From the NCBI RefSeq assembly GCF_050920415.1, contig NZ_CP169309.1: 64,000 bases of DNA; one strand, 5' to 3'. Below, piece by piece: positions 24,911-26,089 of the stretch (positions are counted from its first letter, which is position 1; the number at the start of each line of letters is the position of its first letter). The stretch comes from Escherichia coli (lineage in GTDB: Bacteria > Pseudomonadota > Gammaproteobacteria > Enterobacterales > Enterobacteriaceae). The notes beneath the pieces were generated by a model. The model was not told the DNA's origin. It saw only the letters and a program-made list of their open reading frames with translations, and did no database searches. The position numbers were made by a program, and so were the translations under genes.

Positions 24911-26089
24911 ATGACTGCTGTAAGCCAAACCGAAACACGATCTTCTGCCAATTTTTCGCTTTTCCGCATCGCTTTTGCGGTTTTTCTCACCTACATGACC
25001 GTAGGGTTACCATTGCCGGTTATCCCGCTGTTTATTCATCATGAGCTGGGCTATGGCAACACCATGGTCGGGATTGCCGTCGGCATTCAGTTTTTGGCTA
25101 CGGTGCTGACGCGTGGCTATGCCGGGCGACTGGCCGATCAATATGGTGCAAAACGTTCGGCGCTTCAGGGGATGTTAGCTTGTGGTCTGGCGGGGGGCGC
25201 ACTGCTGTTGGCGGCGATTTTGCCCGTCTCCGCACCGTTCAAATTTGCTCTGTTGGTCGTCGGACGTTTGATTCTTGGCTTTGGTGAAAGCCAGTTACTG
25301 ACGGGCGCTCTGACCTGGGGATTGGGCATCGTTGGGCCAAAACATTCCGGCAAAGTGATGTCATGGAACGGAATGGCTATTTACGGTGCCCTCGCTGTTG
25401 GTGCACCGCTTGGCCTGTTGATTCATAGCCATTACGGTTTTGCTGCACTGGCGCTCACCACAATGGCATTACCCATACTGGCGTGGGCCTGCAACGGCAC
25501 AGTGCGCAAAGTACCGGCCCTGGCGGGAGAACGTCCATCGCTGTGGAGCGTTGTCGGGCTTATCTGGAAACCAGGGTTAGGTCTGGCGCTACAAGGCGTG
25601 GGTTTTGCGGTTATCGGAACTTTCGTTTCGCTCTACTTTGCCAGCAAAGGATGGGCGATGGCGGGCTTTACTCTTACCGCGTTTGGCGGGGCATTTGTCG
25701 TGATGCGCGTAATGTTTGGTTGGATGCCGGACCGTTTTGGCGGCGTGAAAGTGGCGATTGTTTCTCTGCTTGTAGAAACAGTGGGCTTGTTGCTGCTCTG
25801 GCAGGCGCCAGGTGCGTGGGTCGCATTAGCGGGCGCGGCCTTAACCGGAGCTGGATGTTCGCTTATCTTTCCTGCGCTGGGCGTGGAGGTGGTTAAACGT
25901 GTACCGTCACAAGTTCGTGGCACCGCGCTGGGCGGTTACGCCGCGTTTCAGGATATCGCCCTCGGCGTCTCCGGGCCGCTGGCGGGAATGCTGGCGACCA
26001 CATTTGGTTACTCATCGGTATTTCTTGCCGGGGCGATCTCTGCGGTGCTGGGAATTATTGTCACGATACTGTCGTTTCGTCGGGGTTAA
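24911..26089 (+). CDS. yfcJ: MFS transporter YfcJ
   Basis: 392-aa 12-TM-like hydrophobic product matching YfcJ. Confidence 0.9.

Follow-up and report, generated by a model that had tools for sequence, protein, structure and literature searches.

Convergent yfcJ and flk genes of Escherichia coli share a conserved TTAA at their stop codons, an ordinary junction with no room for an intergenic terminator

When two convergent genes end on the same few nucleotides, where do their transcripts stop, and is the overlap put to use or simply tolerated? The question is raised by yfcJ and flk in the window, a stretch of 64,000 nt of Escherichia coli DNA (contig NZ_CP169309.1) that was analysed as a whole and is numbered from its first letter. 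The two genes and the site at which they meet are:

24911..26089, + strand: yfcJ, MFS transporter gene, 392 aa (ORF and RefSeq; product 99% identical to K-12 YfcJ)
26086..27081, − strand: flk, flagella biosynthesis regulator gene, 331 aa (ORF, RefSeq and PF27202 (Flk_N))
26086..26089, no strand: TTAA tetramer with both stop codons (ORFs, annotation and an alignment of nine sequences)

The ORF list has yfcJ and flk sharing the TTAA at 26086..26089 (window letters TCGGGGTTAA at 26080..26089, and TCGGGGTTAACGAACC at 26080..26095). On the + strand yfcJ ends with CGG GGT TAA, its stop occupying 26087..26089, and on the − strand flk ends with GTT CGT TAA, its stop being the reverse complement of 26086..26088. 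The two protein-coding genes thus lie tail to tail on opposite strands with a coding overlap of exactly 4 nt, and flk, which encodes a C-terminal hydrophobic anchor, is coding right up to it. An earlier note on this DNA had claimed that the stops overlap on a TTAA, and this was borne out by the letters, the ORFs, RefSeq and the annotation of K-12. The RefSeq ends of both genes in strain MFDS1022581, which is 100% identical, are exactly the window coordinates, and K-12 MG1655 shows the same 4 nt overlap with identical junction letters (flk, b2321, 2437950..2438945, +; yfcJ, b2322, 2438942..2440120, −).

The junction region, taken as a 1.4 kb query, is carried at a coverage of at least 80% by 5421 of 5426 complete E. 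coli genomes. This stretch shows 100% identity to MFDS1022581 and about 96% to most other complete genomes, and in each of the 11 full-length matches among those listed the annotation of the matching stretch includes both genes. At this locus (25400..26800) the strain of the window belongs to a lineage that is uncommon in E. coli, with six of 5425 records at least 99% identical and the others 95–99% identical.

The overlap would be an artefact of annotation if one of the stops were not the true end of its protein, or if one of the ORFs were not a real gene. Neither the alignments of homologues nor the K-12 and RefSeq annotations gave any support for this. YfcJ and Flk both align end to end with their homologues, with no frameshift, and the C-termini are kept (...ILSFRRG* in YfcJ; an anchor ending ...WLVR*, WLLS* or WLVV* in Flk). 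Pfam PF27202 (Flk_N) is present in Flk homologues, and the annotations of K-12 and of RefSeq (PGAP) are identical. Judged by these sequence comparisons, an artefact is effectively refuted.

Overlaps of this kind are well documented. The modal overlap length in prokaryotes is 4 bp, stops on opposite strands can coincide on four tetramers (TTAA, CTAA, TTAG and CTAG), and a count in E. coli gave 58 convergent overlaps (Lillo & Krakauer 2007, PMC2174442). The yfcJ/flk junction belongs exactly to this 4 nt stop/stop class and does not differ from it in kind. Overlap at the level of transcripts is commoner still, with 3′-end overlap in 276 of 370 convergent E. coli operons (~75%; mean 286 nt; Conway et al. 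2014, PMC4161252). The arrangement, the class (described in 2007) and the transcript overlap are therefore all on record already. What is added here is that the TTAA has been kept throughout the sampled Escherichia and in Citrobacter sedlakii, in contrast to the spacer-and-terminator junctions of more distant relatives. A TTAA tetramer is trivial by itself; what counts is that two genuine genes end there and that it is invariant. The overlap is real and ordinary, with no sign of a special function, and its importance is small, although it provides a clean example of zero intergenic space being tolerated between convergent genes.

Within the window there are seven convergent junctions, with gaps of 179, 57, 215, −4, 47, 32 and 58 nt. 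That of yfcJ and flk is the sole overlapping one, the other six having gaps of 32–215 nt, most of which hold a strong hairpin or a bidirectional terminator. Bidirectional terminators occur at the junction of mlaA with a hypothetical gene, and at the yfcD/yfcC junction. The 57 nt gap, which contains a 14 bp hairpin, separates smrB from a fimbrial adhesin gene of the StfH/YfcO family (14876..15721, +) that the identical RefSeq genome annotates as a pseudogene because of an internal stop; this pair also appears in the K-12 excludome.

Nine sequences were aligned across the junction: the window, K-12, E. albertii, three cryptic-clade or divergent Escherichia, Escherichia sp. MOD1, E. whittamii and Citrobacter sedlakii. 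The TTAA is invariant in all nine, while its flanks vary (CGGGGTTAACGAAC, CGTGGTTAACTCAA, CGGTGTTAACTCAC and CGGGGTTAAACCAC), and it is kept in C. sedlakii although Flk is just 62% identical there. On this alignment, the TTAA arrangement is shown to be old, being common to all sampled Escherichia and to C. sedlakii. More distant Enterobacterales that carry yfcJ have spacers of 8–44 nt, often with a hairpin or bidirectional terminator, or an overlap of 32 nt, and in others flk converges on a different partner. The junctions found in these relatives were:

L014, a Jejubacter-like contig (Flk 51–53% identical): 26 nt gap forming a textbook bidirectional terminator, AAAAGCGCCC-TTCG-GGGCGCCTTT
L011, Citrobacter sp. 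JGM124 (Flk 46%): 32 nt gap with a CCCCCGC/GCGGGGG hairpin
L018 (Flk 46%): 44 nt gap with a long hairpin
L025, Enterobacteriaceae bacterium LUAb1 (Flk 42%): 8 nt gap
L015, 3468..3499 (Flk 49%): 32 nt flk/yfcJ overlap, the YfcJ homologue (MFS) being 13 codons longer at its C-terminus
L017, without yfcJ: flk converges on fabB, 9 nt gap
L023, without yfcJ: flk converges on fabB, 86 nt gap with a perfect bidirectional terminator, AAAAAAACCATCCG...CGGATGGTTTTTTTTT
L024, 3490..3492: flk converges on a rhodanese gene, 1 nt gap
L019, Affinibrenneria: flk converges on an aromatic-lyase gene, 100 nt gap

Where yfcJ is present and not extended, the C-termini are colinear within about one residue (YfcJ ending ...FRRG*, ...FRR*, ...FRQR* or ...FRK*), and Flk carries a hydrophobic anchor at its C-terminus in every such relative. 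What distinguishes the architectures is thus whether a short spacer is present, not extension of an ORF. The TTAA group is nested among relatives with other arrangements, making it likely that the TTAA is derived in the Escherichia–Citrobacter lineage, as far as these few taxa indicate. The simplest route to it would be the deletion of a short spacer, since the C-termini of both proteins are colinear within one residue and the ORFs are not extended. The outgroup is a handful of contigs, and Salmonella, Klebsiella and Enterobacter are not among the sampled loci. Such a junction can evidently stay fixed in Escherichia and related Citrobacter, while at this position more distant relatives have a bidirectional terminator within a spacer.

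When contigs were scanned with Flk, all loci recovered were from Escherichia or Citrobacter, apart from two contigs that are probably contaminants. These two (L010, SPDP01000015.1, 'Alcaligenaceae bacterium SAGV5'; and L012, JAUMTW010000044.1, 'MAG: Corynebacterium sp.') carry flk sequence 90–100% identical to the gene of E. coli, and probably reflect contamination or mis-binning in public assemblies.

The persistence of the TTAA can be accounted for by its coding role. Without its stop, yfcJ would run on for 50 codons, to the next in-frame stop at 26240; flk, if it lost its own, would gain 25 codons beyond the C-terminal membrane anchor (next stop at 26010). Both stops include the central bases, 26087 and 26088. 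Because stop loss extends YfcJ or Flk, and the two central bases serve both genes, the tetramer is most likely held by double purifying selection, and ordinary selection on the two proteins would suffice for its invariance. The long conservation of the overlap fits such passive double constraint as well as selection for mutual exclusion of the two genes, which is considered below.

The earlier note had also remarked that the overlap leaves no intergenic space for a terminator, and zero intergenic bases do separate the stops. Relatives L014 and L023 have a bidirectional intrinsic terminator at this same map position; the window, having no intergenic bases, has none, and another route of termination must operate. 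A scan for a GC-rich hairpin with an A-tract and a T-tract between the stops found none at the junction, and an Rfam search over 24500..27300 gave nothing there, its sole match being a sub-threshold REP-like element downstream of fabB. Since there is no intergenic DNA, the terminator or 3′ end of either gene must lie inside its partner. The junction could serve as a natural test case for where and how RNA polymerase stops when no intergenic terminator fits. Three candidate features were located:

26144..26173, + strand: 11 bp hairpin, GGACGCGTTGC-CATGTTTT-GCAACGTGTCC, candidate 3′-end structure of the yfcJ mRNA (folding)
26137..26163, + strand: weak terminator-like site, 7 bp stem CAGCGCG-GGA-CGCGTTG followed by CCATGTTTTG (terminator scan)
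25650..26085, − strand: untranslated 3′ extension of flk, candidate zone of Rho loading and termination (C>G profile and folding)

At 55–85 nt beyond the stop of yfcJ, the 11 bp hairpin is formed by the flk codons for DTLQ and ATRP. Its free energy of −19.5 kcal/mol places it in the top 0.44% of 40 nt windows in the 64 kb, and the first 100 nt past the yfcJ stop fold with z = −1.85. The 7 bp stem (26137..26153) is followed by CCAUGUUUUG (UGUUUUG), and competes with the hairpin, so that the two cannot form together. These features could be taken to mean that 26137..26173, within the coding sequence of flk, has been selected as a terminator or 3′-end stabiliser for yfcJ, and there is a precedent in the predicted rho-independent terminators that lie within the partner for 23 of the 116 genes (~20%) in E. 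coli convergent overlaps (PMC2174442). However, the strong hairpin has no U-tract after it, and the number of terminator-like sites in the region is not above expectation (six, against 4.0 ± 1.7 in shuffled sequences). The Term-seq tables of Adams et al. 2021 (PMC7815308) list no 3′ end there. In the alignment, the hairpin is specific to E. coli sensu stricto; it is weakened in E. albertii and absent in the cryptic clades and Citrobacter, with no compensatory changes. An embedded terminator shaped by selection is unlikely on this evidence. The more specific proposal of a conserved, selected yfcJ terminator at 26144..26173 was rejected, because the structure is not kept outside E. coli sensu stricto and shows no compensation.

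The yfcJ extension is not C-rich over its first 400 nt. The RNA of yfcJ probably ends by a mixture of weak hairpin-dependent termination, Rho action and trimming that halts at the stable hairpin (26144..26173).

A different picture is seen on the opposite strand, where the scan found no terminator-like hairpin downstream of flk within the yfcJ coding sequence. The flk extension has more C than G throughout: (C−G)/80 is at the 91st percentile over the first 80 nt and highest, at the 98–100th percentile, over 25646..25825. The first 100 nt past the stop are unstructured (z = −0.15). Past its stop the flk RNA is thus untranslated, unstructured and C-rich, as expected of a substrate for Rho, and flk transcripts probably undergo Rho-dependent termination within a few hundred nt, which base composition and folding make plausible for this gene. 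Neither flk nor yfcJ has a mapped 3′ end in the Term-seq tables of Adams et al. 2021 (PMC7815308), and no bicyclomycin-sensitive region in either extension appears in their tables; flk has no entry in the Term-seq and Rho tables, and the missing Rho region for flk (supp. 2) is possibly due to expression that was too low. The end points of the flk and yfcJ transcripts given here are thus ones that we infer.

With each stop inside the other gene, complete mRNAs carry sequence antisense to the partner, and the obligatory antisense overlap claimed by the earlier note agrees with a published call for K-12. The flk and yfcJ genes are convergent neighbours, and the pair is among the 165 convergent excludons of MG1655 detected in at least 50% of 58 RNA-seq samples (ExcludonFinder, NAR 2025, PMC12288877 Table 1). 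It conforms to convergent excludons as described (PMC12288877, PMC4161252), that is, convergent neighbours with 3′-overlapping transcripts, being itself one of those listed. In typical E. coli excludons the two genes are separated by intergenic DNA, 95 nt on average; yfcJ and flk instead overlap within their coding sequences, and for them mutual exclusion is a candidate only. The call is almost automatic for overlapping coding sequences once both are expressed, and it does not give the extent of read-through.

Could the overlap have been kept as a functional excludon, excluding flk and yfcJ mutually through collision of RNA polymerases, cleavage of the RNA duplex by RNase III, or both? Such exclusion, if true, would couple the expression of a membrane transporter to that of a flagellar checkpoint protein. 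The listing of the pair in the MG1655 excludome, the finding that excludon pairs in general are less co-expressed in single cells (PMC12288877), and the retention of the TTAA from Escherichia to Citrobacter are all in keeping with it. Against this, the near-automatic nature of the call reduces the weight of the listing, and there is no known functional link between the two genes. In two published K-12 data sets yfcJ RNA is low: its relative level is 163–187, compared with thousands for many genes (PMC10294691 Table 1), and in LB it amounts to 15 reads per 800 nt, entry into the gene being limited by Rho (PMC7815308 supp. 2). Head-on encounters need both genes to be transcribed, and low transcription of yfcJ alone suggests that collisions should be rare. 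The junction is also not kept across flk-bearing Enterobacterales, where gaps with terminators, other partners and the absence of yfcJ are all seen, and this variable geometry, so far as the sampled sequences go, argues against a conserved switch. Regulatory interference between flk and yfcJ is probably weak, going by the level of yfcJ (no expression figures for flk were found), and preservation of the overlap for mutual exclusion is quite improbable.

The evidence fits best with an ordinary, compact, convergent 4 nt stop/stop junction, and it is likely that a spacer was lost, that double constraint then held the tetramer, that transcripts end within the partner gene, and that the overlap is tolerated. 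Transcripts of flk and yfcJ would each run into the partner and end there. Given the weak transcription of yfcJ, collisions and sense–antisense pairing would probably be infrequent, and the overlap would be tolerated rather than used as a switch.

A Pho box (TGTCACGATACTGTCGTT; K-12 version TGTCACGATACTGTCATT) is present at 26059..26076 (+) in the last codons of yfcJ, and ends 10 nt before the TTAA. The centre of a K-12 PhoB ChIP-seq peak falls on it (2438961, corresponding to window position 26070), and with a score of 8 this peak ranks seventh among 65 regions and first among those that are intragenic (PMC10294691). Deletion of phoB left yfcJ RNA unchanged (PMC10294691). The box arises from synonymous codon choices and is not kept in the cryptic clades or Citrobacter, and the window strain differs from K-12 within it at 26074 (TGTCGT versus TGTCAT). 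A roadblock by PhoB was rejected as the main explanation of the junction, since yfcJ RNA does not respond to the loss of phoB, the box lacks conservation, and three other intragenic sites showed no roadblock effect (PMC10294691). A combined scheme, in which selection keeps the overlap and so forces flk and yfcJ to be exclusive in single cells, perhaps modulated in K-12-like strains by a phosphate-dependent roadblock at the PhoB site, is very improbable.

Two further elements lie upstream on the yfcJ side. Within codons 18–26 of yfcJ (24964..24988, +) is a terminator-like hairpin, CCGCA-TCGCTTT-TGCGG followed by TTTTTCTC, which is identical in K-12. The sole entry for yfcJ in the tables of Adams et al. 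2021 is a Rho region with its peak at K-12 2440043 (−) and a score of 5.8 (PMC7815308). This position maps to 24988 of the window and so coincides with the hairpin. Reads in the 800 nt windows at 2440043 fell from 236 upstream to 15 downstream without bicyclomycin, and from 266 to 98 with the drug (PMC7815308). The site may represent premature termination that limits yfcJ expression or read-through from fabB. Downstream of fabB itself, in 24654..24748, the REP-like element matches Rfam naRNA4 at 39.3 bits, below the gathering threshold of 59.5; after it comes a bidirectional terminator of clean form, AAAAGGGAACC-CGAT-GGTTCCCTTTTT.
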